This document shows positions 1,927-29,857 of a stretch of 37,094 nt of DNA, one piece after another. The stretch comes from Candidatus Moraniibacteriota bacterium (lineage in GTDB: Bacteria > Patescibacteriota > Minisyncoccia > Moranbacterales > UBA11712): assembly GCA_028695025.1 (NCBI GenBank), contig JAQVJV010000008.1:1-37094 (forward strand), given 5' to 3'. The stretch's first letter is position 1. Every line of letters begins with the position of its first letter. Below the pieces are notes generated by a model. That model worked only from the letters and a program-made list of their open reading frames with translations. It was not told where the DNA came from and made no database searches. A program made the translations under genes and the position numbers.

Positions 1927-3399
1927 ATGCGAAAAAAAATATCAATAATCTCTTCTTTTTTGCTTGTTGCGGTTCTTATGGTTTTTTCCGGATGCGGTTG
2001 CAAACAAAACAGCTCGACTGGCTATGAAGTCCACCTCGAAGTATGGGGGCTTTTTGACGATTCGGACGTGATGCAAAAGGCGATCAGCGATTATCAAAAA
2101 CGGAATCCGACCGTGAAAGAGATTATCTACAAAAAAATGACGGTGGATTCGTATGAAAACGACATCATGGACGCGCTGGCCACCGGGAACGGGCCGGACA
2201 TATTTCTCATCGGAAACACTTGGCTCGCAAAGCACAAAGCAAAGCTGGCTCCGGCTCCCATTGACAATCTTTCAAGCAACCAGTCCCTGATCATCACTCC
2301 CAAGCAAGTCCAGGACCAGTTCGTGGATGTGGTTTCTTCGGATTTTGTTTCAGACGGAAAGGTCTATGCCCTTCCCCTTTCGGTGGATTCGCTCGCGCTG
2401 TATTACAACAAAGATCTTTTGAACCAAGCCGGAATTTCCATCCCTCCCGTCACGTGGACTGATTTTGATACGGCGGTGAAAAAAATTACCAGGATTGACT
2501 CTCTGGGAAATATCGAACTTTCCGGCGCGGCAATGGGAATGTCGAGCGATGCCAGTTCCGGAACGGGAAAAATCAACCGGGCGACGGATATCCTTGCGCT
2601 TCTTATGATGCAGGCCGGGGCCAATATGGTGAATGCCGAAAGCGGCCAAGCCAGCTTTGCCGATTTTACCAAAACGACTTATGGCGCTGATATGTCCCCG
2701 GGAGAGCAGGCATTAGCCTATTATACAAAATTCACCGATCCGTCGAACGCCGAATATTGCTGGAATTCGCTTCAGCACAATTCGATCGACAGTTTCATCG
2801 AGGGGGGTACGGCGATGATGCTCAATTATTCCTGGAATATTTCCAAAGTCCAGTCCAAGGCGCCGAAGCTGAACTTGGGAATTGCCGATGTCCCCCAGAA
2901 TATGGACGCGGGCGGAAATGGAATTTCCATGGATTTTGCCAACTACTGGGGATATGCCGTTTCCAACTACAAAGTGCAAAACCAGGAATATGTGGAGCAG
3001 GCGACGGGGAACAAAAATACTTACGCGACCAATGACCAGCGCATCGCCGAAGCTTGGAAATTCATCCGCTTTCTCACGATGACGAAGGCATCAAGTTCCA
3101 GTCTTCCGGTGGCGCCGCAAACAACCGAAAGCGCCAATTTTGATCCGGCGGCGGAGTACGCGACCAATCAAAACAAACCTGCGGCTCGACGGGATTTGAT
3201 CGAGAATCAGAAATCAGATTTGCTCCTTGGCCCGTTTGCCGATGGAAATCTCATTGCCAAAAGCTGGCCCCAGCCGGACAATCTGGCGGTGGAAAGGATT
3301 TTTGACGAAATGATCGATGATGTCGCTCTCAAGGGAGAAAAAGTCCACGACGCGATCCAACGGGCCCAAAACAGCGTAAACGTTTTGACGAGAGATTGA
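1927..3399 (+). CDS. ABC transporter extracellular solute-binding lipoprotein (family 1, sugar-type), orphan (no permease adjacent)
   Basis: Lipoprotein signal ...VFSGCGC. Typical SBP_bac_1 features (GPDIFLIGNTWLAKHKAKLAP, LPLSVDSLALYYNKDLL). 490 aa. Confidence 0.8.
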   Translation: MRKKISIISSFLLVAVLMVFSGCGCKQNSSTGYEVHLEVWGLFDDSDVMQKAISDYQKRNPTVKEIIYKKMTVDSYENDIMDALATGNGPDIFLIGNTWLAKHKAKLAPAPIDNLSSNQSLIITPKQVQDQFVDVVSSDFVSDGKVYALPLSVDSLALYYNKDLLNQAGISIPPVTWTDFDTAVKKITRIDSLGNIELSGAAMGMSSDASSGTGKINRATDILALLMMQAGANMVNAESGQASFADFTKTTYGADMSPGEQALAYYTKFTDPSNAEYCWNSLQHNSIDSFIEGGTAMMLNYSWNISKVQSKAPKLNLGIADVPQNMDAGGNGISMDFANYWGYAVSNYKVQNQEYVEQATGNKNTYATNDQRIAEAWKFIRFLTMTKASSSSLPVAPQTTESANFDPAAEYATNQNKPAARRDLIENQKSDLLLGPFADGNLIAKSWPQPDNLAVERIFDEMIDDVALKGEKVHDAIQRAQNSVNVLTRD

Positions 3400-3420
3400 A
3401 TAGGTTTTGTCATTTTATTC

Positions 3421-3507
3421 TCTCCCTTTCATAAAGGGAGAGCGAGAGAGGGATTTAATATTTTTTGAAATCCCCTTTTGTTCCCCCTTTTGAAAAGGGG
3501 GAGAAAT
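3421..3507 (+). promoter_or_regulatory. three consecutive perfect hairpins in the 5' leader of the first pilin gene, the last one sequestering the GGGGGAG ribosome-binding site
   Basis: TCTCCCTTT-CAT-AAAGGGAGA (3421-3441). GGGATTT-11nt-AAATCCC. TCCCCCTTTT-G-AAAAGGGGGA (3482-3502) overlaps the SD located 7 nt before the ATG at 3511. Confidence 0.4.
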
Positions 3508-3510
3508 ACT

Positions 3511-4485
3511 ATGAAATTTTCAAAGAAAAATAAAATCTATATAAAAATATTTTTTTCGGCAATCATTCTTTTTTTCGCCGCATCTTCTGCCCATGCCGCG
3601 CTGGTTCCATGTGGGATTGGAGAGGGAAACGCTGACTGTACGCTTTGCCACCTGGTGGTCGGCTTCAAGAATATCTATGACTATCTCCTAACACTTCTTC
3701 TTTCCGCGGCAACGGTGGTGATAATAGTCGCTGGAGTGATATACATGATCTCAAGCGGTAACAAGAATTTGATTGATAAGGCTAAATCGGCTTTCATGTA
3801 CACAATCACAGCAATTGTTCTTGGTCTCACCGCTTGGCTCATGATCAATACGGTTCTCAACGCTCTCGGCTTCAAAAACGCCGGAAGCTGGTGGACCTTC
3901 ACTTGCGATACGACTCAAACATCGGTGAATAATAATCTGAATACGGGAATTAAACTTCCGGGATTAAGTGGAGGAGCGTCAACTGGAAGTCAAACAAATA
4001 AGGCTCAAGGGGACGGAACTTGCGGGGGAATAAAAGATAACGTTGAAGATCCGAACAATTGCGGAAAAACCTCTCAAGCTCTTGACACTTTGTTGGCTTG
4101 TATACAAAGCAGAATGAATGCAACAGGCATTGAAGTAAAAAAAAACTTTAATCCTTTCAAAATTGAGGAAGTTTTTGCGTCTGGAAAACTTTCAATTAGT
4201 ATAGGAATTGATGAAAACAGCCATGCTAATAATTCTTGTCACTATGGTGGCCGGTATTGCCAAGGGCAAGCCAATGCAGCTGATTTGCATGGAGATATGC
4301 CCGCTATAAAAGATGCGGCAATTGCTTGTAACGCTGATACAGTTATCTATGATAGTATGGCTTATTATGGAGGTAAGAGTAAGGCTTATACAGGAGGCAA
4401 TAATAAAACAGGAGATTGGGCGCATGTAAAACATGTCCATGTCAGCGTCAACAACAAAGCCTGCGGATGTGATTATTTAAAATAA
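3511..4485 (+). CDS. TrbC/VirB2-like T4SS pilin-family protein with a ~200-aa Cys-rich C-terminal extension
   Basis: Signal peptide. Conserved pilin core (LLTLLLSAATVVIIVAGVIYMISSGNKNLIDKAKSAFMYTITAIVLGL) shared with four downstream paralogs. C-terminal region has 12 Cys. ATG 3511 preferred over the TTG at 3478 because of the strong RBS. Confidence 0.7.
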   Translation: MKFSKKNKIYIKIFFSAIILFFAASSAHAALVPCGIGEGNADCTLCHLVVGFKNIYDYLLTLLLSAATVVIIVAGVIYMISSGNKNLIDKAKSAFMYTITAIVLGLTAWLMINTVLNALGFKNAGSWWTFTCDTTQTSVNNNLNTGIKLPGLSGGASTGSQTNKAQGDGTCGGIKDNVEDPNNCGKTSQALDTLLACIQSRMNATGIEVKKNFNPFKIEEVFASGKLSISIGIDENSHANNSCHYGGRYCQGQANAADLHGDMPAIKDAAIACNADTVIYDSMAYYGGKSKAYTGGNNKTGDWAHVKHVHVSVNNKACGCDYLK

Positions 4486-9387: not shown

Positions 9388-9468
9388 GGGCAGGTGGTGA
9401 AATGGCAGACACGCTAGCCTTAGGAGCTAGTGCCGCGAGGCGTGAGGGTTCAACTCCCTCCCTGCCCA
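9388..9468 (+). tRNA. tRNA-Leu (anticodon TAG), type II long variable arm, no encoded CCA
   Basis: Acceptor GGGCAGG/CCTGCCC. Anticodon arm CTAGC-CTTAGGA-GCTAG. T arm GAGGG-TTCAACT-CCCTC. Confidence 0.85.
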
Positions 9469-9517
9469 CATTCATTTCTTTTTGAGATTTTTACTTCTCT
9501 CTTGTTCGCAATCACCT

Positions 9518-9558
9518 CCAACATTCAATGTTCGGATTTCCCGAACATTGAATGTTGG
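9518..9558. repeat. perfect 18-bp inverted repeat with 5-nt loop (CCAACATTCAATGTTCGG-ATTTC-CCGAACATTGAATGTTGG) 10 nt upstream of the rluA start
   Basis: Read directly from the sequence. Each arm is itself nearly palindromic around TTCAA/TTGAA. No T-run follows. Confidence 0.6.
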
Positions 9559-9567
9559 GAAGCGCCA

Positions 9568-10302
9568 ATGCTAAAAATCATTTTCCAAAATCAGGATTTT
9601 ATCATCGTTGAAAAACCGGCGGGGCTGGCGGTCCATGGCGGAGCGGGGATGAGCGAGCCGACGCTCGTTGGTTTTCTCGTCGAAAAATTCCCGGAAATCA
9701 AAAACGTTGGAGACAATCCGGCGGTGCGCCCGGGGATCGTCCATCGCCTCGACAAAGAAACTTCGGGAGTGATGGTTGTGGCGCGCAACCAAAAGACTTT
9801 TGAATATCTCAAAAAACTTTTCGCGGATCGCAAAATTGAAAAAAAATATTTGGCGGTTGTCCATGGAAAACTCAAAAGCAAAACGGGGAAAATCGAGGGT
9901 GAGATGGGCCGCTCCAAAAAAGATTTCCGCAGACAATCCCTTGTCCGGGGAAAGATTCACCCTGTTGAATCCCGCAAAGCGGGTCTGGCTTCGCCAGAAT
10001 TCAACAGGGTAAACGTGCGAAAAGCAAGATATTCTTTAACCTTTTATAAAACACTAAGGGAATCCGGAGAAAAGACACTTCTCGAGGTCTCTCCCAAAAC
10101 CGGGCGGATGCACCAGATCCGGGTGCATCTGCAATCGATCGGCCATCCGGTTGTCGGGGACAAAAAATATACTTTCAAGCAGTGGAAGAATGACGCGGCG
10201 CCGCGTCTTATGCTCCATGCCGTTTCATTGGGCTTCACCAGCGCCCACAATGAAAAATATTTTTTCGAATGTCTCCCTCCGCCGGAATTTCAAAAAATTT
10301 GA
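9568..10302 (+). CDS. rluA: RluA-family pseudouridine synthase
   Basis: IIVEKPAGLAVHGG...HRLDKETSGVMVVARN...MHQIRVHL motifs. ORF extension upstream (9430) overlaps the tRNA and was trimmed to ATG 9568. Confidence 0.85.
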   Translation: MLKIIFQNQDFIIVEKPAGLAVHGGAGMSEPTLVGFLVEKFPEIKNVGDNPAVRPGIVHRLDKETSGVMVVARNQKTFEYLKKLFADRKIEKKYLAVVHGKLKSKTGKIEGEMGRSKKDFRRQSLVRGKIHPVESRKAGLASPEFNRVNVRKARYSLTFYKTLRESGEKTLLEVSPKTGRMHQIRVHLQSIGHPVVGDKKYTFKQWKNDAAPRLMLHAVSLGFTSAHNEKYFFECLPPPEFQKI

Positions 10303-10310
10303 ATCACAAA

Positions 10311-10337
10311 AACACCCCGATATGAAGGGTGTTTTTG
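10311..10337 (+). terminator. rho-independent terminator of rluA
   Basis: AACACCC-GATATGAA-GGGTGTTTTTG. Confidence 0.6.
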
Positions 10338-10341
10338 ATAT

Positions 10342-10416
10342 TGGAGCGAGTGAGCGGAATCGAACCGCCGTCTTATGCTTGGCAAGCATATGTACTAACC
10401 ATTGTACTACACTCGC
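10342..10416 (-). tRNA. tRNA-Gly (anticodon GCC), CCA encoded
   Basis: Reverse complement: GCGAGTG TA GTAC..GTAC A TATGC-TTGCCAA-GCATA ... GGCGG-TTCGATT-CCGCT CACTCGC T CCA. Confidence 0.85.
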
Positions 10417-10418
10417 GA

Positions 10419-11096
10419 TTAATATTCCCTAGACAACAAATCAAGCCATATAAGAATTTTCTTTTTGAGATATTTGTTGCCTAGCTGGATTGAACATACT
10501 CCGTAACTAACTTTTCTGGTTTTGTGTCTGCCATCTATAATTACTGGTTTATAAACATTATTTTTGTTTATATCTAATCTTTTACTCCAGTAATCTATAC
10601 AATTTCCTTGATCCAAATCAGGATAAACTATAATGTTAATTTTTAATTTATCTTCACTAATCTTACAGACTTCAACTAAAAACCTTTTAAATATTCGAAG
10701 CAAATCACTGTCAATATTTCCCACCCTAACAATACCATTTGAAAAATTTTTATCTCCTTCTCCCCAGTATAGAGCCAAACCAAGAAGAAAAATCTTATTA
10801 TGCTTTAATTTTTCAAAATCATCTTTTGCTTCTTTCTCTGATTTTTTGTAAAAGTTATGCCATTTTATTTTTTTCAAATTATTCAGATGTTTTAGTCTTT
10901 TTCTGCTTATCTCTTTTGCTCTTTTAGTTAGTTGTCTCTGGATATTTTTCGACCAATCAATATCCCTAAGCCAATAGGAGACCGTACTCTTGGAAACGCC
11001 AAGAATTTCAGCTATTTGCCGATAGCTCTTTTTGGCTCTCCTTAATTTGATAGCTTGTAATTTCTTATCTTTATTCATGAACCTTTGTGAATACAT
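10419..11096 (-). CDS. putative free-standing LAGLIDADG-type homing endonuclease with N-terminal HTH domain
   Basis: N-terminal HTH (KKSYRQIAEILGVSKSTVSYWL). Single LAGLIDADG-like motif FLLGLALYWGEGDK (compare I-DmoI LLGLIIGDGG). Lies between tRNA-Gly and the intron-containing tRNA-Phe on the same strand. Confidence 0.45.
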   Translation of the reverse strand: MYSQRFMNKDKKLQAIKLRRAKKSYRQIAEILGVSKSTVSYWLRDIDWSKNIQRQLTKRAKEISRKRLKHLNNLKKIKWHNFYKKSEKEAKDDFEKLKHNKIFLLGLALYWGEGDKNFSNGIVRVGNIDSDLLRIFKRFLVEVCKISEDKLKINIIVYPDLDQGNCIDYWSKRLDINKNNVYKPVIIDGRHKTRKVSYGVCSIQLGNKYLKKKILIWLDLLSREY

Positions 11097-11148
11097 TTGT
11101 ATATTAACACATCGGTTCTAATTTTAAAAGTACTCTAAATTTTATGGG

Positions 11149-11477
11149 TGCCGAGGGAGAGAATCGAACTCTCGACACAAGGATTTTCCTTGTTGCTGAC
11201 CCGGATTTCTCCGGGAGTCGGACTATTTCATCCCCTCTCTTCGTGAAAAGAGGGGTCGGGCGCTGATGCAGGGTTATTGTCGGGCCTCACCTGCTAGTCT
11301 CTACACCTGCCTTCGCTAAAGCCACGGGCTTTCCCGGCGAAGGATTGGCTCGAGATTACCATATCCCGATTTTACATCGAAACTTAGGCTTCCTCGAATT
11401 CACCCGATTTTCATTTTCACATTGCTGTGAAACGGACCGAAAACCAGTCCTCTGCTCTACCACTGAGCTACCTCGGC
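11149..11477 (-). tRNA. tRNA-Phe (anticodon GAA) interrupted in the anticodon loop by a group I intron; exons 11446-11477 and 11149-11188 (junction +/-1 nt)
   Basis: 5' exon GCCGAGGTAGCTCAGTGGTAGAGCAGAGGACT. 3' exon GAAAATCCTTGTGTCGAGAGTTCGATTCTCTCCCTCGGCA. Spliced product has a Phe-like anticodon arm GAGGA-CTGAAAA-TCCTT, variable loop GTGTC and discriminator A. The exon-terminal U forms a U:G pair in a P1-like helix GGACUG/CGGUCC. The intron ends in G. Confidence 0.75.
11189..11445 (-). ncRNA. group I (IC3-like) self-splicing intron, ~257 nt, no internal ORF
   Basis: Core segments resembling the Azoarcus and cyanobacterial tRNA introns: GCCGGGAAAGCCCGTGGC, GAAGCCTAAG, TATGGTAAT, GAGCCAA, GAAGGCAGGTGTAGAGACTAGCAGG. 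Terminal G before the 3' exon. Confidence 0.7.
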
Positions 11478-11541
11478 TTGTTATATATTGTTCAAATAAC
11501 TGTGGGCGCGAAAAAACTTTCACCCCGCGCCAAAATCTGCG

Positions 11542-11615
11542 TGGACGATGCTGGACTCGAACCAGCGACCCTCTGTTTGTAAAACAGATGCTCTAACCAG
11601 CTGAGCTAATCGTCC
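11542..11615 (-). tRNA. tRNA-Val (anticodon TAC)
   Basis: Reverse complement: GGACGAT TA GCTC AGCTGGTTA GAGC A TCTGT-TTTACAA-ACAGA GGGTC GCTGG-TTCGAGT-CCAGC ATCGTCC A. Confidence 0.85.
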
Positions 11616-11709
11616 TATATAAGTTAGTCTGTAGTCAAAACTGCTTGCCCGCCAAAGTCCCGCCGAAAGCGGGACGGAGGCGGGAGCTACGCGCCCGTCT
11701 AAATAAATC

Positions 11710-11796
11710 TGGTGCCGTGGGGGAGACTCGAACTCCCACGCCCTAATGGACACCAGCCCCTCAAGCTGGCCCGTCTACCGATTCCGGCACCACGGC
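11710..11796 (-). tRNA. tRNA-Leu (anticodon GAG), type II, CCA encoded
   Basis: Reverse complement: GCCGTGG ... CCAGC-TTGAGGG-GCTGG, long variable arm, GGGAG-TTCGAGT-CTCCC CCACGGC A CCA. Confidence 0.85.
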
Positions 11797-21707: not shown

Positions 21708-21780
21708 GGGCCTTTAGCTCATCTGGTAGAGCGCATCCATGGCATGGATGAGGTGACCGGTTCGAGTCCGGTAAGGTCCA
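21708..21780 (+). tRNA. tRNA-Ala (anticodon GGC)
   Basis: GGGCCTT..AAGGTCC acceptor with G3:U70. Anticodon arm CATCC-ATGGCAT-GGATG. Confidence 0.85.
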
Positions 21781-21786
21781 CAATAT

Positions 21787-21858
21787 GTCCTTGTAGTTCA
21801 ATGGATAGAACAATGGCGTCCTAAGCCATTGATGTAGGTTCGATTCCTACCAAGGACG
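21787..21858 (+). tRNA. tRNA-Arg (anticodon CCT)
   Basis: GTCCTTG..CAAGGAC acceptor. Anticodon arm ATGGC-GTCCTAA-GCCAT. T arm GTAGG-TTCGATT-CCTAC. Confidence 0.85.
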
Positions 21859-21955
21859 CAAGGGTATTTTTCTTCAATAAAAATTATAAAATGTAGCTTA
21901 AGTATTAAGCTGTTTTTGTGATGACAAATAGGTTTTTGCATGATAAAATAAGCCC

Positions 21956-22969
21956 ATGAAAAAGAAAAAGGCAAGCGATTTTCCAAAAGGGGAAATTGTG
22001 ATTTATAAAGCCAAAGACGGAATAGTAAAACTAGAAGTGGAGCTTCAGGAAGAAAATATATGGCTTGATGCGCATCAGATAGCTATGCTTTTTGGCGTGA
22101 ATCGCCCGGCGATTGTTAAGCATATAAACAATATTTACAAAACAGAAGAGCTTGTTGAAAAAGTAACCTGTTCCATTTTGGAACAGGTTGCCGCAGACGG
22201 AAAGATGAGAAAAATGAATTTGTATAATCTGGATATGATAATTTCCGTCGGTTATCGTGTAAACTCGCAAAGAGCTACACAATTCCGCATCTGGGCCACG
22301 AGAATTCTGAAAAATCATTTGTTAAAAGGTTTCACGCTGAACGAACAAAGGTTGAAGGGCTATCATCAGGCGAAATTGGGAGAATTGGAAAGCGCTTTGC
22401 GGCTTTTGAAGCGGGCGATTGACAGCAAGAAACTTCTCAAGGGAGAAGCTGAAGGACTCTTGAAAGTGATTACGGATTATACCAATTCCTGGATCCTGCT
22501 TCAAAAATACGACGAGGGAAGATTGGTTATCCGGAAAAATATTTTGAAAATCGGCAGGGAGCTCGAATATGATAATGCGAAAGATTCAATTGCGAAATTG
22601 AAAAACAGCCTGATCAAAAAGAAAAGCGCGACGGATATTTTCGGACAGGAAAGAGGACACGGACTCGAAGCGATTTTTGGAAATCTCAAACAATCATTTG
22701 GCGGGAAGAAACTTTATCCGACGCTTGAAGAACAGGCGGCGCATCTTCTCTATTTCGTGATCAAGGATCATCCTTTTGTCGATGGCAACAAGCGGATTGC
22801 CTCATTTTTGTTTGTGAATTTTCTCGCTGAAAACAACCAGCTTCTTCGCAAAAACGGCGAGCGGAAAATCAACGACAACGCCTTGGTGGCCCTTGCGCTT
22901 CTAGTTGCTCAAAGTCATCCGAAAGAAAAAGAATCAATGGTCGCGCTGGTGACGAATTTGCTTTTCTAG
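21956..22969 (+). CDS. RhuM-family / Fic-Doc family protein (N-terminal RhuM-type DNA-binding region, C-terminal Doc-like Fic motif)
   Basis: N-terminus EIVIYKAKDGIVKLEVELQEENIWLDAHQIAMLFGVNRPAIVKHINNIY (RhuM signature). C-terminal HPFVDGNKR (Doc-type HxFx(D/N)GNKR). Confidence 0.75.
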   Translation: MKKKKASDFPKGEIVIYKAKDGIVKLEVELQEENIWLDAHQIAMLFGVNRPAIVKHINNIYKTEELVEKVTCSILEQVAADGKMRKMNLYNLDMIISVGYRVNSQRATQFRIWATRILKNHLLKGFTLNEQRLKGYHQAKLGELESALRLLKRAIDSKKLLKGEAEGLLKVITDYTNSWILLQKYDEGRLVIRKNILKIGRELEYDNAKDSIAKLKNSLIKKKSATDIFGQERGHGLEAIFGNLKQSFGGKKLYPTLEEQAAHLLYFVIKDHPFVDGNKRIASFLFVNFLAENNQLLRKNGERKINDNALVALALLVAQSHPKEKESMVALVTNLLF

Positions 22970-23030
22970 TCTTTTTTATATTTTTTTTACTGAGGATTGG
23001 AGGGTTGGGGATAACAATAAAATAATTGAA

Positions 23031-23463
23031 GTGATCAACAAAATTCCGAAACCTATAATTGAAATAATCCAAAAAATCGAAGCCGCTGGTTTTGAAGCTT
23101 TTGTCGTGGGCGGATGCGTGCGGGATTTGCTGATGGACATGGAACCAAAAGACTGGGATGTGACGACGAATGCGAAGCCGGAAGATGTGATGAAAATTTT
23201 TCCGGACAGTTTCTATGAGAATGATTTTGGAACGGTAGGGGTTAAAATCAAAAATCAAAAGTTGATAAGGAAAAAACTGAAGTCATTGAAGTGACTACAT
23301 ATCGTATCGAATCAAAATACTCTGACAAGCGGCGGCCGGATGAAGTGCGGTTTGCGAAAACGCTCGAGGAAGATTTGGGAAGGCGTGATTTCACGATTAA
23401 TGCGTTGGCATTGAAAATCAAACCTCACCCCGACCCTCTCCCCGCCAAAGGCGGGCAGGCTTA
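23031..23463 (+). pseudogene. duplicated, frameshifted 5' fragment of the CCA-adding enzyme gene ending inside a MITE copy
   Basis: 23031-23440 is ~90-95% identical to 26172-26640 (MINKIP...FEAFVVGGCVRDLLMDMEPKDWDVTTNAKPE...). It lacks the ~90-nt KDTGAQK...EITEVVEV segment. +1 frameshift in the A-run at ~23270. Stop codon lies inside the repeat element. Confidence 0.7.
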
Positions 23464-23558
23464 GTAAGGAGAGGGAGGCGTCAAGTTGAACTCATTATTG
23501 GCAAAACTGATCGCCTTCTCCTTTATAAGGAGAAGGAGGGATGAGGTCGATGAGGTCG
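23423..23558. mobile_element. MITE-like palindromic element, copy 1 (inverted orientation, far end degenerate)
   Basis: Starts with CCTCACCCCGACCCT. Contains CCCTCTCC..GGAGAGGG (with a nested CCGCC-AAAG-GCGGG insertion) and CCTTCTCCTTTATAAGGAGAAGG hairpins. AGGGATGAGGTCG is the reverse complement of copy-2 CGACCTCATCCCT. Spacer is homologous to the copy-2 spacer in reverse. Confidence 0.55.
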
Positions 23559-23969
23559 AAAAATAAAAAAAGCCCGCAAGCAGTTTTGCTCACGGGTCGG
23601 ATTCTCCGCTCAACGAGTCCGCGAATGATCCATGAACTCGAGAAAGCGGAGAAGCGATGCTTGTTTCCCTTTCTTCCCAAACCGTTTGTCTGGGGCGTAG
23701 TTTTTCGGAGCCGGGTTCAACTAATCCCGTTGATCTCACTCCTTTCCTGATCTATACCCCCTACCTGTGGCTGGGATTTTCAGGGAAAACAAGGCGCTTC
23801 TCCCTCTGAATCCACTTTCCAAAAAGAAAATGAATTCGGATAGAGAAAGCAGGCGATGGATATTTTTTGAAAGACCATCCTTCCACTCAACGAGCTCGCG
23901 AACAATTTCGCAAACTCGAGAAAGTGGGGGAACGCAGTGCATTGAAAGCGTTCCCCGAAAAATTAGTGG

Positions 23970-24560
23970 TTAAAGAACAGTTTTGGACCCCTCAATGAGG
24001 GTTCGAAGAATCGTTGCCCAAGGTTTCAATGGGGTGCAATTCTCTTTTTCGTCTTCATTTAGCCCTTCCCATTGTGAGCGGGTAATGGCTCCCAATCTTT
24101 TGTGATAGTGGTTTGGGTATTCTCGTCTAGCCAAGTCTAGTAGCAAAAAAATGTTTACCCGTCCACACCTTATCTCAAAATTTTCGTACGGTTTATGACA
24201 AACCCAATCTATATGGGTTAACCGGTTTGAAATTTCATAACGATCTTCATGCGAGATTGTTTCTCCGTGAAGATTCAGATTTGAAACTAGGGCTAAGCCC
24301 TTGAGTTCTTTTTTTTGACCAAACCTATTTAACGATGCCAGGAATAATCGTAAGCCGTTTTCCCAAGAGGGCTGCTCGCCCTTATGGTTAGGTAATTCAA
24401 GGTCCGTCAAAATGAAATCCTGATTCTTGAATTTATCTCTTGCTTCACTAAATGACGATGCAAAGACTACTTGCACCGGCATTGCAGATAACTCTTTTTT
24501 TGCCCAATCCAATTGAATAGGACTGTCTTCAATTACCAAAACTTTATATTTCGGTTCCAT
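23970..24560 (-). CDS. orphan response-regulator receiver (REC)-domain protein with uncharacterised C-terminal domain
   Basis: KVLVIEDSPIQ...ILTDLELP (phospho-acceptor Asp)...ALVSN...HKPY (K-P) match CheY-like receiver landmarks. No HTH or known output domain. Confidence 0.5.
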   Translation of the reverse strand: MEPKYKVLVIEDSPIQLDWAKKELSAMPVQVVFASSFSEARDKFKNQDFILTDLELPNHKGEQPSWENGLRLFLASLNRFGQKKELKGLALVSNLNLHGETISHEDRYEISNRLTHIDWVCHKPYENFEIRCGRVNIFLLLDLARREYPNHYHKRLGAITRSQWEGLNEDEKENCTPLKPWATILRTLIEGSKTVL

Positions 24561-24583
24561 TTCTTCTCCTTGTTCTATTTCTA

Positions 24584-24612
24584 TACCGCCGAGGCAGGCG
24601 GTTTTTTTTAGT
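24584..24612 (+). terminator. strong plus-strand rho-independent terminator with no annotated plus-strand gene upstream
   Basis: ACCGCC-GAGGCA-GGCGG followed by TTTTTTTT. Confidence 0.45.
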
Positions 24613-24718
24613 TTTCAATGAGCTCGGAGGGTTTCCTCCTGGAAAATCACCGAGTGATGATTTTTCAGGAAGGGGAAATGATTTTTCCCGAATCCTGTCT
24701 TGGCCAAGGGGCGAAGCC

Positions 24719-24952
24719 CTAGCAGCCTATATTGTTGTCAACGTTGTTCATGCTCCAGTTGTGAGAGATTCTGCGCGCAGCTTTTGCGGAAAGGATATTC
24801 ATAGGGACAAAGAGCGTGGCTGCCAATGTGATCCAGATATTCGTCAGAAGGTGGATTCCGATGGCGATTATCGCGATGATCATGAGGAGGGTAGCTATTC
24901 TTTGGCTCTTCGGAATCACGTCGTCTGTGTATTTGCTGGCGTAGTGTCTCAT
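24719..24952 (-). CDS. hypothetical small membrane protein (77 aa, two hydrophobic segments)
   Basis: ORF with hydrophobic helices LLMIIAIIAIGIHLL and ITLAATLFVPMNIL. No homology recognised. Confidence 0.3.
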   Translation of the reverse strand: MRHYASKYTDDVIPKSQRIATLLMIIAIIAIGIHLLTNIWITLAATLFVPMNILSAKAARRISHNWSMNNVDNNIGC

Positions 24953-25170
24953 ATGTTTGGATTTAAGGATTATATGTCTTTCGGAATTTTTCGGTCTTTC
25001 AGCTTAACAGGGAATTATAGCAAGAAAATAGGGAAAAGTCAATAAAGCGAGAAAACGAATAAGTCAAAATATGGCTAATATAAAGCAAGAATATGAGATA
25101 TATAATAAATTCATCAAAAATATTGACTATGTGGCAAAAAGGGTGTAGAATAGAAATAGACTTTCTCGAA

Positions 25171-25296
25171 CCTCACCCCGACCCTTTTCGACCTCATCCC
25201 TACCTTCTCCTTATAAAGGAGAAGGCGATTATTTTTACCGATGAATATATTGATGCCGAGTTCCCTCTCCTTACTAAGGAGAGGGTCAGGGTGAGG
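25171..25296. mobile_element. MITE-like palindromic element, copy 2 (complete, 126 bp, 15-bp terminal inverted repeats)
   Basis: Left TIR CCTCACCCCGACCCT. Right end AGGGTCAGGGTGAGG. Internal hairpins CCTTCTCCTTATAAAGGAGAAGG and CCCTCTCCTTACTAAGGAGAGGG. Ends 9 nt before the trmB-paralog ATG. Confidence 0.6.
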
Positions 25297-25305
25297 TTTA
25301 AAACT

Positions 25306-26166
25306 ATGAATCTCACTGAATCACTCCAGCATATCGGTCTTAATGAAAAAGAAGCCAAAGTATATTTGGCGCTTTTGCAATTGGGAAAAACGACCGCTTA
25401 TTCCGTTTCGGTGCGAAGCGGAATCAAAAAACCGACGACATACGTCATCCTTGAGCAATTGGTCAAAAAGGGGTATGCTTTTGAGATCCCAAGGGCGAGA
25501 AAACACGTCTTTTTCGCCGAATCGCCGGACAAATGTTTCGCGATGGCGCGGGAGAAGCTGGTCTTGGCGCAGGAATCACTGCCGGAACTCATGGCGGCAA
25601 GGAAGGGGCAGAGCGAGAAAGTGAATATTTCCTATTTTGAAGGGCTTGATGGAATCAGGGAGATGTACGGCAAGTTTTTTGAGTTCATGAAAAAAAAGCC
25701 GGCTTCGGAGCGAGTCTGTTCCGGTTTCTATGCCCAGGCGCGGGGTATATCCAAGGAAGTGGATGATTTTTGGAAGGAGTATAATGCTCAAGTGGTGGCG
25801 CTTGATATCAAGAGGCGGGGACTGACTCCGAAAGACGAGACATTGAAATGGTATTTCGAAAACGCGAAGAATTTGAATATTGATCTTATTGGACTACCGA
25901 AAGAAATATATGACAGCAATGTCTCATTTGAAATTTTTGACGGGTTCGTTCAGATTATCTCCTACGGTTATCTCCAAGGCACCTTGATTGAAAACCGCGA
26001 TGTGGCCGATTCATTGCGGCAGATATTTGAAATAATCTGGAATGTGTATAAGAATGAAAAAGAAGTTGAAGAAACCTCACTCCAGCCTATTAAACCTCAC
26101 CCCGACCCTCTCCTTATCAAGGAGAGGGAGCCCGGCGAAAACAGATTTATTGGCGGAAGAGGTTGA
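25306..26166 (+). CDS. TrmB-family HTH transcriptional regulator (paralog 2) with MITE-derived C-terminal tail
   Basis: MNLTESLQHIGLNEKEAKVYLALLQLGKTTAYSVSVRSGIKKPTTYVILEQLVKKGYA aligns with paralog 1 from its first codon. The ORF-track start 25093 is read-through of the MITE. The last 24 codons (..KPHPDPLLIKEREPGENRFIGGRG) are encoded by mini-MITE copy 3. Confidence 0.75.
   Translation: MNLTESLQHIGLNEKEAKVYLALLQLGKTTAYSVSVRSGIKKPTTYVILEQLVKKGYAFEIPRARKHVFFAESPDKCFAMAREKLVLAQESLPELMAARKGQSEKVNISYFEGLDGIREMYGKFFEFMKKKPASERVCSGFYAQARGISKEVDDFWKEYNAQVVALDIKRRGLTPKDETLKWYFENAKNLNIDLIGLPKEIYDSNVSFEIFDGFVQIISYGYLQGTLIENRDVADSLRQIFEIIWNVYKNEKEVEETSLQPIKPHPDPLLIKEREPGENRFIGGRG
26095..26136. mobile_element. 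mini-MITE (TIR + one hairpin, 45 bp core) at the 3' end of the trmB paralog
   Basis: AAACCTCACCCCGACCCTCTCCTTATCAAGGAGAGGGAGCCCGGC, identical to copy 4. Confidence 0.55.
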
Positions 26167-26171
26167 AACAT

Positions 26172-27791
26172 ATGATCAATAAAATTCCGCAACCAATTAT
26201 AAATATTATAAAAAAGCTCGAAGCCGCCGGTTTTGAGGCTTTTGTGGTGGGCGGATGCGTGCGGGATTTGCTGATGGACATGGAACCAAAAGACTGGGAT
26301 GTGACAACGAATGCCAAGCCGGAGGAAGTGATGAAAATTTTTCCGGACAGTTTCTACGAGAATGATTTTGGAACGGTAGGAGTGAAAGTTAAAAATCACA
26401 AAGACACAGGAGCACAAAAAGCCAAACAGAGCCTAAAAGCACAAATAACAAAGACCGAGAAGAATGGGGGCGACGAAATTACGGAAGTTGTGGAGGTTAC
26501 GACCTATAGAATAGAAAGCAAATATTCTGACAAGCGGCGGCCGGATGAAGTGCGGTTTGCGAAAACGCTCGAAGAAGATTTGGGAAGGCGTGATTTCACG
26601 ATTAATGCGTTGGCGTTGAAAGTCAAACCTCACCCCGACCCTCTCCTTATCAAGGAGAGGGAGCCCGGCTATAAAGTTGTAGATTTGTTCAATGGGCAAG
26701 ATGATTTGAAGAATAAAATAATTCGAGCTGTTGGCGACCCAAACGAGCGGTTTGACGAAGATGCGCTGAGGATGATGCGGGCGGTTCGATTTGCAATAAC
26801 ACTCACAAATGAAAACGAAGTAAAACGAATTAGAACAAATAGCGGACCGAGAAAATTGAGTGAAGAAACGCCTTTTACAATTGAGGAAAAAACCGGGAAG
26901 GCGATTGTGAAGAACGCGAAAAATTTGAAATTCATTTCCCGGGAACGCATACAAGATGAATTGAATAAAATTTTGGTTTCGGATTTTGCGGCGGAAGGAG
27001 TTGAGTTGTTGCGGGAGCTGAAACTCCTCCAATATATTCTTCCGGAGCTGGAAAAAGGATACGGCGTGGGACAAAACCGCCATCACATATATACCATCTG
27101 GGAGCACTCGATCTTGTCTCTCAAAAATTGCCCGTCAAGGAAACTTGAAGTGCGGCTGGCAACCCTGCTTCATGACATTGCGAAGCCTGATACAAAAAGA
27201 GGGGAAGGGGCGTATTCGACTTTCTATAATCACGATCACGTCGGAGCTCGATTGGTTGAAAAAATTTTGAAGCGGCTTAAGTATTCCTCGGAGATCATCC
27301 GCAAAGTGAAGTTGCTCGTGGACAACCATATGTTTTACTACAACGTTGACGAAGTGGGAGCGTCGAGCGTCCGCCGGCTGGTCCGGAAAGTCGGCCTTGA
27401 GAATATCGATGATTTGATTGACCTTCGCGTTGGAGACCGGCTGGGTTCGGGCGTGCCAAAGGCTGTCCCGTACAAACTGCGCCATTTCAAATATATGGTG
27501 GACAAGATTTCCCACGATCCTTTGTCGGTCAAAATGCTCAAAGCGGATGGGAATGATATCATGAAAGAGTTGGATATGGAGCCTGGACAGAAGATCGGGG
27601 CGATTTTGGATGTTTTGCTTTCAGAGGTGATTGAAGATCCGAAGAAAAATAGAAAAGACATGTTACTCGAGCGAGCGAGCGCGTTGAGCGGCGAGGATCT
27701 TTCCAAACTTCGTGAAATGGCGAAAGAAAAAATTGAAGAAAAAAAAGAAGAAGAGGATAAGGAAATAAAAAATAAGTATTGGGTGAAATAA
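26172..27791 (+). CDS. cca: CCA-adding enzyme / tRNA nucleotidyltransferase (Pol-beta NTase head + HD domain) carrying an in-frame 15-codon mini-MITE insertion
   Basis: [32 protein letters not shown]-domain HDIAKPDT...H..H motifs. ATG 26172 (RBS GGAAGAGG) preferred over TTG 26163. Insertion encodes KPHPDPLLIKEREPG. Confidence 0.85.
   Translation: MINKIPQPIINIIKKLEAAGFEAFVVGGCVRDLLMDMEPKDWDVTTNAKPEEVMKIFPDSFYENDFGTVGVKVKNHKDTGAQKAKQSLKAQITKTEKNGGDEITEVVEVTTYRIESKYSDKRRPDEVRFAKTLEEDLGRRDFTINALALKVKPHPDPLLIKEREPGYKVVDLFNGQDDLKNKIIRAVGDPNERFDEDALRMMRAVRFAITLTNENEVKRIRTNSGPRKLSEETPFTIEEKTGKAIVKNAKNLKFISRERIQDELNKILVSDFAAEGVELLRELKLLQYILPELEKGYGVGQNRHHIYTIWEHSILSLKNCPSRKLEVRLATLLHDIAKPDTKRGEGAYSTFYNHDHVGARLVEKILKRLKYSSEIIRKVKLLVDNHMFYYNVDEVGASSVRRLVRKVGLENIDDLIDLRVGDRLGSGVPKAVPYKLRHFKYMVDKISHDPLSVKMLKADGNDIMKELDMEPGQKIGAILDVLLSEVIEDPKKNRKDMLLERASALSGEDLSKLREMAKEKIEEKKEEEDKEIKNKYWVK
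26628..26669. mobile_element. mini-MITE (45 bp) inserted in-frame inside the cca coding sequence
   Basis: Identical 45-mer to 26091-26135. 45 nt = 15 codons, reading frame preserved. Confidence 0.55.
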
Positions 27792-28640: not shown

Positions 28641-28714
28641 CGGGCTGTGGTATAACGGCATTACGCACGCTTCGGGTGCGTGTAATCCGGGTTCAATTCC
28701 CGGCAGCCCGACCA
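28641..28714 (+). tRNA. tRNA-Pro (anticodon CGG), CCA encoded
   Basis: CGGGCTG..CAGCCCG acceptor. Anticodon arm CACGC-TTCGGGT-GCGTG. T arm CCGGG-TTCAATT-CCCGG. A CCA. Confidence 0.85.
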
Positions 28715-28719
28715 AGATT

Positions 28720-29133
28720 ATGAGAATAGGAATTATTGGAAGTATGCAATATACAGAAAAAATGGTTGAAGTTCGAGATAGGCTTGCCGCGCTTGGTCAT
28801 GATGCTTTTGTGACTGATTTGCATAAGCCGTTCATTGGCAAGTCGGATGAAGAAAAAGAAAGAATAAAATTGTACCAAAAATACAATAAAGACGCTATTC
28901 GTGAATTTTGGAATGCAATGCAGAAAGCCAACGCGGTGTTGGTTTTGAATCTGGATAAAAATGGAGAAAAGAATTATATCGGCGGAAACACATTCCTGGA
29001 AATAGGTTTTGCGCATATATTAAACCAAAAAATATTTTTGTATAATCCAATTCCGGAAATTCCGTATTATAAAACTGAAATTATCGCGATGAAGCCAATA
29101 GTTATAAATAGAGATTTATCACTAATCAATTAG
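28720..29133 (+). CDS. nucleoside 2-deoxyribosyltransferase-like (Rcl/DNPH1-fold) protein; start codon 6 nt after tRNA-Pro
   Basis: MRIGIIGSM..., AVLVLNLDKNGEKNYIGGNTFLEIGFAHILNQKIFLY resembles the nucleoside deoxyribosyltransferase family signature (xGTxFEhGyA). Confidence 0.5.
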   Translation: MRIGIIGSMQYTEKMVEVRDRLAALGHDAFVTDLHKPFIGKSDEEKERIKLYQKYNKDAIREFWNAMQKANAVLVLNLDKNGEKNYIGGNTFLEIGFAHILNQKIFLYNPIPEIPYYKTEIIAMKPIVINRDLSLIN

Positions 29134-29171
29134 ATAGAGACGCAAAATCTTGCGCATCTATCTACGGTGAT

Positions 29172-29474
29172 GTGAATCGTGTTATGAAATTTGTCATTGA
29201 AAGCCCAAAAACAAGTGTTGCCAATTTTTTCCGCCGCGCCGGGTATGTTTTTCAAAAACAAAATGACGGAGAAATGGCGTTTGTGCGAAAGCTGACAGAC
29301 CAGCCTTTCCCGAGGTTTCATTTGTTTGTGCGGATTGTTGATTATAAATTTCAGGTGAATTTCCATATTGACCACAAGGCAACGAGCTATGATGGGACAA
29401 GCGCGCATAGCGGAGAATATGATAAGGATAACGAATTGTTGAAAGCAGAAGCGGGAAGGCTGATGAGTTTGTGA
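29172..29474 (+). CDS. hypothetical protein (100 aa)
   Basis: ORF between two tRNA clusters. No recognisable motif. Confidence 0.4.
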   Translation: MNRVMKFVIESPKTSVANFFRRAGYVFQKQNDGEMAFVRKLTDQPFPRFHLFVRIVDYKFQVNFHIDHKATSYDGTSAHSGEYDKDNELLKAEAGRLMSL

Positions 29475-29478
29475 AAAA

Positions 29479-29549
29479 GGGGATATAGTAAAATGGCATT
29501 ACGCAGCATTCGCATTGCTGAATTCCGGGTTCGACTCCCGGTATCTCCA
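29479..29549 (+). tRNA. tRNA-Ala (anticodon CGC)
   Basis: GGGGATA..TATCTCC acceptor with G3:U70. Anticodon arm CAGCA-TTCGCAT-TGCTG. T arm CCGGG-TTCGACT-CCCGG. Confidence 0.8.
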
Positions 29550-29646
29550 CATAAAGGTGATGTCGAGACGGGGTTCCCGCCCCAATTATATTGGGGCGAG
29601 GCTCGCCCAAGTTATGCTTGGGCGGCGACTCCCCTCGGGTCCACAG
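29550..29646 (+). other. 97-nt highly structured spacer between tRNA-Ala and tRNA-Val (three 7-bp perfect hairpins)
   Basis: CCCCAAT-TAT-ATTGGGG. GGGCGAG/CTCGCCC. GCCCAAG-TTATG-CTTGGGC. Outer CGAGACGGGG...CCCCTCG pairing. Confidence 0.3.
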
Positions 29647-29720
29647 GGACAATTAGCTCAGCTGGTTAGAGCGCTACATTCACACTGTAGAGGCCGGAGG
29701 TTCGAGTCCTCCATTGTCCA
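29647..29720 (+). tRNA. tRNA-Val (anticodon CAC)
   Basis: GGACAAT..ATTGTCC acceptor. Anticodon arm CTACA-TTCACAC-TGTAG. T arm GGAGG-TTCGAGT-CCTCC. Confidence 0.85.
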
Positions 29721-29726
29721 CAATCT

Positions 29727-29813
29727 GGAGAGATGCCAGAGAGGCCGAATGGGCCGCACTCGAAATGCGGTAGGGCAGCAATGTCCTCGGGGGTTCGACT
29801 CCCTCTCTCTCCG
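29727..29813 (+). tRNA. tRNA-Ser (anticodon CGA), type II
   Basis: GGAGAGA..TCTCTCC acceptor. Anticodon arm CCGCA-CTCGAAA-TGCGG. Long variable arm. Discriminator G. Confidence 0.85.
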
Positions 29814-29857
29814 CCGATTTACAATTTAAAAAAATAGTGTTAGGTTAAGATAACGTA

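Follow-up and report, generated by a model that had tools for sequence, protein, structure and literature searches.

The window analysed here, a 37,094-nt contig of a Candidatus Moranbacteria MAG (CPR/Patescibacteria), carries a full-length cca gene and, upstream of it, a second sequence that begins like cca and runs out inside a small palindromic repeat. The question raised by this locus is how a second 5' end of cca came to lie there and what part the repeat may have had in it. A sequence-only reading of the DNA had described the place as a duplicate of the cca 5' region at a rearrangement breakpoint; we report here what becomes of that description when the two copies, the repeat and the corresponding loci of relatives are compared.

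The genes around the fragment are, in order, tRNA-Ala and tRNA-Arg, a RhuM/Fic gene, the cca fragment, a REC-like gene and a 77-aa ORF (both on the reverse strand), TrmB, cca and a conserved 203-aa gene. The RhuM/Fic-family gene (21956-22969, forward strand), which matches Pfam Virulence_RhuM and Fic, is the left neighbour of the fragment, and a spacer of 61 nt (22970-23030, forward strand) separates its stop from the GTG of the fragment. To the right lie the REC-like gene (23970-24560, reverse strand), which has a weak Response_reg match and is syntenic in siblings, the 77-aa ORF for a membrane protein, placed between the REC-like gene and TrmB, and the TrmB-family regulator gene (25306-26166, forward strand). 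The resident cca (26172-27791, forward strand) encodes 539 aa from the ATG at 26172, with PolyA_pol, RNA-binding, HD and tRNA_NucTran2_2 matches; its product is NCBI protein P0001 (100%), and the nearest homologues are 80-82% identical. The stop of TrmB overlaps a TTG at 26163, the start of cca in mechanical ORF calling, and the NCBI protein starts at the ATG at 26172. An encoded 3' CCA is absent from 7 of the 10 tRNA genes in the window (9388-11796, 21708-21859 and 28641-29815), the three that have it being Gly-GCC, Leu-GAG and Pro-CGG, and the organism should therefore need a working CCA-adding enzyme.

Relatives of the RhuM/Fic gene (loci L007-L086) share 45-60% identity with it and come from MAGs labelled Proteobacteria, Planctomycetota, Saccharibacteria, Peribacteria and other phyla; this spread of related sequences across many phyla suggests that the gene is mobile. 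At several CPR loci the RhuM/Fic gene adjoins TrmB and cca.

The truncated copy of cca

Positions 23031-23441 of the window align with 26172-26646, the 5' end of the resident cca, at 88-89% identity, in direct orientation and at a distance of 3.1-3.2 kb. The alignment consists of two ungapped blocks, 23032-23260 with 26173-26401 (89%) and 23270-23441 with 26475-26646 (88%), to which shuffled sequences yield nothing comparable. The duplicate is real, although some of the dimensions first given for it need correction. The identity is below the 90-95% first estimated, there being 45 differences in 399 aligned codon nucleotides, and the internal segment missing from the copy, taken to be about 90 nt, is a net gap of 64 nt (3n+1) at the position called site 1 below, where approximately 73 nt of the resident gene stand opposite 9 nt of the copy.

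The cca part of the fragment (23031-23419, forward strand) opens with the GTG codon, at which the left edge of the cca homology also lies, and includes motif A (GGCVRD...DWD) and motif B (RRDFTINA). Both of its halves match Pfam PolyA_pol (PF01743) with E of about 4e-13, so that PF01743 and motifs A and B, by which the head domain of a class II CCA-adding enzyme is recognised, are all found here. The homology ends after motif B: motifs C-E, which would complete the catalytic core, and the neck, body, tail and HD domain are absent from the fragment, and no cca 3' sequence follows the repeat at its end, element A. Because core motifs and downstream domains are missing, the fragment is not a functional class II CCA-adding enzyme.

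Its reading frame is also broken. The ORFs 23031-23294 and 23291-23464 lie in different frames, and these frames together with the 3n+1 gap place the break at an A4 run (23257-23260, forward strand) from which one A is missing; read from the sequence, one A added to this run restores continuous reading, as expected from the frameshift in a poly-A run that had been noticed earlier. The second ORF stops at a TAG (23462-23464) within element A, again as described before. The 61-nt spacer, read directly, has no Shine-Dalgarno sequence at a proper spacing before the GTG, and its similarity to the cca upstream regions of the relatives and of the resident gene is not significant (p 0.19-0.87). The proposal that the conserved motif upstream of cca (TGCTAGGAT), or the relic of an element, survives in the spacer was dropped, its scores being no better than those of shuffles. 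With its truncation, one 1-nt frameshift and no RBS, the fragment is by its sequence a pseudogene, and on this point the sequence-only reading stands; since these are its sole disabling lesions, it would fit a young one.

The fragment is 92.7% identical in protein sequence to the resident cca, the other sequences among 240 homologues reaching at most 88.7%. A second 5' copy of cca is found in none of 166 other loci (some 90 of them containing cca) within the flanks retrieved, on which count the idea that truncated cca copies recur in CPR was rejected. In the comparison of sibling loci, the in-frame element described below is shared with siblings and the fragment occurs at no other sampled cca locus. 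No donor allele turned up: a degenerate pattern built on the site-1 peptide specific to the copy had 0 matches in metagenome contigs, and with the frame-corrected fragment as protein query the matches were confined to pieces of cca that were short, at contig ends or frameshifted. Two of the donor-search matches (L005 and L006) come from long-read assemblies, in which the ORFs are broken, and are uninformative.

The palindromic repeat at its end

The repeat belongs to a family, here named PHP, whose unit is a 13-nt tail followed by a 10-bp hairpin and which occurs either as 45-nt singlets or as inverted doublets of about 135 nt. There are five PHP copies in the window, all between 23.4 and 26.7 kb. 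Element A (23420-23558, forward strand; z = -3.7), which carries the in-frame TAG, is a full-length double-hairpin repeat, and element B (25169-25298, forward strand; z = -6.3) is a full-length repeat with two inner hairpins. Both doublets have 16-nt terminal inverted repeats with the ends AACCTCACCCCGACCC / GGGTCAGGGTGAGGTT and fold as long hairpins; they are 81% identical to one another over 96 nt, in inverted orientation. Two 45-nt half elements, identical to each other, flank the 5' region of the resident cca: element C (26092-26136, forward strand) lies 35 nt upstream of the cca ATG, and element D (26625-26669, forward strand) lies within cca, directly after motif B at the position called site 2, where its DNA (AAACCTCACCCCGACCCTCTCCTTATCAAGGAGAGGGAGCCCGGC) is translated in frame as KPHPDPLLIKEREPG.

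Element D is the key to the right-hand edge of the fragment. The cca homology had been said to stop at the left terminal inverted repeat of element A; it continues, in fact, for 22 nt into the element, to 23441, because this element stands in the resident cca as well, in frame and at the same codon, and beyond 23441 the copy follows the full-length version. These first 22 nt of element A are common to the in-frame element D, and the recombination junction lies in that stretch. A MITE-like palindromic repeat is accordingly found at the junction, as the breakpoint claim had it, but to call the duplicate 'MITE-delimited' is misleading, since the element is an in-frame part of cca here and also in L003, L004 and L089. 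These three siblings have one PHP element just upstream of the cca ATG and another in frame at the same site after motif B, and because they carry the latter at site 2 the in-gene element must be older than the event that produced the fragment.

Elements A and B show terminal inverted repeats on a short non-coding unit, and copies of the family are dispersed within and between genomes (the window; L002, L003/L004, L089, L096, L099, L132 and L147), as in MITEs. A comparison of the filled cca upstream site of L003 with the empty ones of L094, L002 and L090 hints at a target-site duplication, GAAAT, but the hint is not a robust one. Mobilisation of the stretch from element C through the 5' part of cca to element D, as a composite transposon or in an IS200/IS605-like manner, was considered and rejected, as the copy is without an intact left hairpin.

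The elements also touch the neighbouring genes. Between the end of element B and the TrmB ATG there are 7 nt, and TrmB reads through element C, so that the last 40 or so codons of this gene have no homologue and tblastn matches stop at residue 245-247. The ends of the elements are rich in GGAG/GAGG 7-12 nt upstream of start codons, both for TrmB (window 25285-25308) and for cca (L003 1885-1911), and from their sequence and position they could supply the Shine-Dalgarno of the downstream gene.

Between element A and the REC-like gene there is further structure. A terminator-like hairpin with a T-run, of the intrinsic type (23573-23596, reverse strand), is followed by an unexplained non-coding stretch of about 370 nt downstream of the REC-like gene (23597-23969, reverse strand), which folds far better than shuffles (z = -8.6) and holds two hairpin repeats of about 55 nt, 278 nt apart (approximately 23602-23660 and 23880-23940). 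It corresponds to no Rfam family, has no copies in the 166 related loci and belongs to about 1 kb that is missing from one sibling (the P0005 contig); it could be a structured RNA of a new kind or a further palindromic element. At the gathering threshold the Rfam scan of the window returns tRNAs only, and within 22950-25320 there are sub-threshold matches only. One such match, of the element B hairpin (25261-25298) to whalefall-1, scores 17.4 bits against a gathering threshold of 37 (E = 0.35) and is probably a chance similarity between hairpins.

Divergence of the two copies and origin of the fragment

The differences between the two copies are those expected of coding sequences. Codon position 3 holds 34 of the 45 (76%), which departs from one third with P = 8e-9 and from the 0.54 expected with one branch neutral with P = 0.002, and the Nei-Gojobori dN/dS is 0.11 with a dS of 0.47. 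When three outgroups are used, 14 changes fall on the branch of the copy, 11 of them at position 3, a noisy count given that the outgroups are distant and saturated. A truncated fragment cannot be under coding selection, and most of this divergence must therefore have arisen within a working cca gene. The divergence is patchy as well: 32 of 126 positions differ in 23031-23105 and 23270-23320 together, against 13 of 273 elsewhere (Fisher P = 8e-9). Synonymous sites are saturated in the diverged patches; elsewhere dS is 0.17, and the 120 nt next to the element contain only 3 differences. This mosaic in the sequence indicates patches of recombination or gene conversion. The copy and the resident are nonetheless mutual closest relatives, their third-position distance being 0.27 as against at least 0.40 to 13 relatives.

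The stretch from Fic to cca is variable among relatives. In L094 about 40 nt separate an intact cca from the preceding Fic gene, whose 3' end is identical to that of the window over 28 nt. The order is TrmB-Fic-cca in L022 and L026; Fic, a 133-aa gene, TrmB and cca in L097; and REC-like, TrmB and cca in L002 and L003. The contig of P0005, which like that of the other sibling, P0007, was read as a gene table, has Fic, 62 nt, the REC-like gene, a 76-aa gene, TrmB and cca, without the cca fragment. Two sibling strains, L003 and L096, provide a more detailed comparison: at least 570 nt, ending at the exact 5' boundary of the site-2 insert, are 100% identical between them, and so are at least 860 nt from approximately position 2580 onward. 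Between these flanks lies a tract of about 300 nt (L003 2274-2580) in which the strains differ in the family of the repeat and by 48 substitutions over some 270 nt, 33 of them at third positions. This is a recombination tract, one end of which coincides exactly with the site-2 insertion site.

From these observations we consider it probable that the fragment (23031-23464) represents the 5' end of a second, diverged allele of cca, left stranded when homologous recombination joined two haplotypes. The lineage would already have carried a PHP element in frame in cca after motif B and further copies in the nearby intergenic DNA, and recombination, presumably in vivo, would have paired the copy inside cca with a full-length one in that intergenic DNA. 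The haplotypes so joined would be one with Fic next to cca, as in L094, and one with Fic, REC, the 77-aa gene, TrmB and cca, as in the P0005 contig, either by a Campbell-type single crossover of a circle or by a double crossover with imported DNA. Such an event would leave one intact cca, with the first 130 or so codons of the other haplotype stranded beside Fic, where they would run on into what remained of the intergenic element and meet its stop after 14 codons; the 1-nt frameshift would have been acquired after the stranding. The second allele may have come from a close relative or from another strain of the population, and the fragment may be either the native 5' end, left behind on Campbell-type entry of a segment with REC, TrmB and the cca 5' part, or the imported piece. 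Comparison of the copy and of the 5' and 3' parts of the resident gene with 13 relatives gave no signal for the direction of the event, third positions being saturated (0.40-0.55), and the left junction, the 61-nt spacer, has no recognisable homology that would place the left crossover. The joining of two haplotypes is favoured both because the two parental gene orders exist in relatives and because L003 and L096 give an independent precedent for a tract that starts at the site-2 insert.

The joining of the two gene orders could, in principle, have happened in the assembler rather than in the cell, with a Fic-cca strain and a strain having Fic, an element, REC, TrmB and cca connected in silico through their shared repeat. 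The window is a MAG contig, its cca protein is found on one contig only, the join lies inside a repeat, the two copies resemble orthologous alleles in their dN/dS, and both gene orders occur in nature, all of which would suit a chimera. We regard one as unlikely, given that the stretch common to element A and the in-frame element type is only 22-24 nt, less than the k-mer length of the last assembly rounds, that no repeat capable of misleading an assembler is present at the left junction, and that a full element A in the cca of the other strain would truncate that gene anyway, the TAG being 42 nt in; neither the frameshift nor the lack of an RBS would be expected of another strain's working gene. 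A plain intragenomic segmental duplication of the cca 5' region through the repeats, followed by neutral decay, which was the simplest form of the duplication first suggested, has in its favour the direct repeat within 3.1 kb, the identical elements C and D on either side of the resident 5' region and the presence of both frameshift and truncation. The third-position bias, on the copy branch (11 of 14) as in the whole, the dN/dS and the high dS do not fit the decay of a truncated copy beyond the reach of coding selection, which moreover lacks the upstream element C and the resident leader, and we hold this explanation to be as improbable as the chimera.

A signature of purifying selection would also be left by a long-lived second functional member of the cca family, for example one of a split CC-adding/A-adding pair, that was recently truncated by a deletion at the element; two class II nucleotidyltransferases do occur in some bacteria. 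This is the disrupted paralogue of the sequence-only reading, and it fares slightly worse again: a long-standing second 5' copy appears in none of the roughly 90 other CPR cca loci within their retrieved flanks, the copy is far closer to the resident gene than other lineages are, with parts nearly identical, and no 3' remnant follows element A. Very improbable, finally, is a function for the fragment itself, in the form of a short head-domain peptide or of an RNA, regulatory or antisense, that affects cca. Its amino-acid changes are conservative and the neighbouring DNA is highly structured, but the frame breaks after 76 codons, there is no RBS, the nucleotide-selection motifs C-E are absent and the fragment is unique to this genome.

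Insertion sites in cca and comparison with known repeats

On the reading preferred here the stranded fragment is a recombination scar of an ordinary kind, and the interest lies rather in the repeats behind it. A survey of alignment A2 and loci L001-L166 shows that the cca genes of CPR/Moranbacteria have two hypervariable hot spots of in-frame insertion, site 1 (window 26385-26490), between GTVGVK and VEVTTYR, and site 2 (window 26625-26669), directly after the motif-B region. The repeat families found at them comprise the PHP type, 'NQSSAFPL..RSRNSSKPSFS', 'NFSKVRPFP..GIPQGQTLKN', 'SNFQFPIS' and 'IRNSKFEIRNKSK', and for 33 of 44 long hot-spot inserts there are copies in the DNA of the other site or beyond cca. 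At site 2 the PHP insert reads QPHP[SN]PLL[IG]KERE.. in proteins P0005, P0007, P0014 and P0083; at site 1 it occurs in P0005, which thus has it at both sites, and in L147, and the orthologues P0042, P0044 and P0055 are without the insert. Alignment to the solved enzyme 6ibp opens a gap of 14 residues opposite the site-2 insert, and the site-1 insert is likewise absent from that structure. In an AlphaFold (AF2) model with a mean pLDDT of 69, the insert forms a loop of lower pLDDT between strands 151-155 and 169-173, and we therefore place it, as modelled, in a loop of the protein.

Outside cca, the locus L099 has a full doublet (3075-3180) in frame inside a Wzy_C (O-antigen ligase-like) gene (2354-3919, reverse strand; ...SLPSPLQMGGQAYQGEGGENFPLLNKERARVRYDNA...), in which the nested-loop variant of element A recurs. 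The PHP family is therefore not restricted to cca.

These repeats may be compared with several known systems. The pairing of icd with e14 or phage 21 in E. coli provides an example of displaced gene-end fragments at integration junctions, and the locus described here shares with it the direct repeats of a gene fragment on either side of inserted DNA and the mainly synonymous differences between the copies, which in the icd/e14 type arise because both copies evolved as working coding sequence. It departs from that example in involving the 5' rather than the 3' end of a gene and in having a palindromic repeat, not an att core, at the junction; no integrase or recombinase is encoded in the 2.7 kb between the cca copies, the ORFs of which are the REC-like gene, the 77-aa membrane protein and TrmB. 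REP singlets and REPIN doublets, which are mobilised by RAYT transposases, resemble the PHP repeats, whose hairpin unit likewise occurs either alone (C, D) or doubled in inverted orientation to form a long hairpin (A, B). Unlike those extragenic repeats, PHP copies lie inside the frames of cca, TrmB and Wzy_C.

Rickettsia palindromic elements (RPEs), Coxiella QMITE1, ERIC and BOX are described as intragenic MITEs (PMC10969869). Like RPEs, the small palindromic PHP repeats occur as in-frame insertions that leave the ORF whole, and they do so in unrelated genes: cca, TrmB at its 3' end and the Wzy_C gene of L099. They differ in that the host is a CPR bacterium (Moranbacteria) rather than Rickettsia or Coxiella, in the much shorter unit, a 45-nt half or a doublet of about 135 nt, and in that two sites of a single enzyme are used again and again by several repeat families unrelated to one another. 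The resemblance is a functional one only. Homologous recombination and rearrangement mediated by MITE and REP sequences have also been described (PMC10969869 section 4.2; PMC3184786), and here, too, dispersed short repeats offer portable homology and the junction lies inside a repeat copy. What sets the present case apart is that one of the recombining copies lies in the reading frame of an essential gene, and that the outcome is a stranded gene fragment and, between strains, a modular exchange of alleles starting at the insert. We found no description of such elements in CPR/Patescibacteria in the limited literature searched, which is not proof of novelty.

A wider reading, which we put forward tentatively and hold with less confidence than the joining of two haplotypes, is that several families of short palindromes in Moranbacteria and related CPR insert time and again, in frame, at the two permissive loops of the essential CCA-adding enzyme and in other genes such as Wzy_C, and then act as portable recombination sites that define gene modules exchangeable between strains, the stranded fragment being a by-product. 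The unit of exchange would then be an element-flanked cassette of element C, the 5' part of cca and element D, an arrangement also found in L003. The fragment would be a dated and readable scar of recombination at a repeat inside the frame of an essential gene, with a function of its own unlikely, and together with the L003/L096 tract it would show that allele exchange in natural populations of CPR has boundaries marked by in-gene repeats. The genomes of CPR are small and regarded as streamlined, yet RPE-like selfish repeats are found in them at fixed cca hot spots across many lineages; this suggests that in-gene repeats give rise to recombination and to variation in protein length in CPR, a source of both that has been too little described. 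There is also a warning for the assembly and annotation of MAGs, in which peptides derived from elements, ORFs lengthened like that of TrmB, and gene calls that are split or duplicated can all arise.

Some Moranbacteria have much longer cca genes, of 680-719 aa (L099 4241-6316; P0021, P0031, P0049, P0081, P0097 and P0108). In the cca of L099, site 1 holds an insert of about 200 residues that, by eye, resembles an extra HD-type domain with HD..GR..H motifs.
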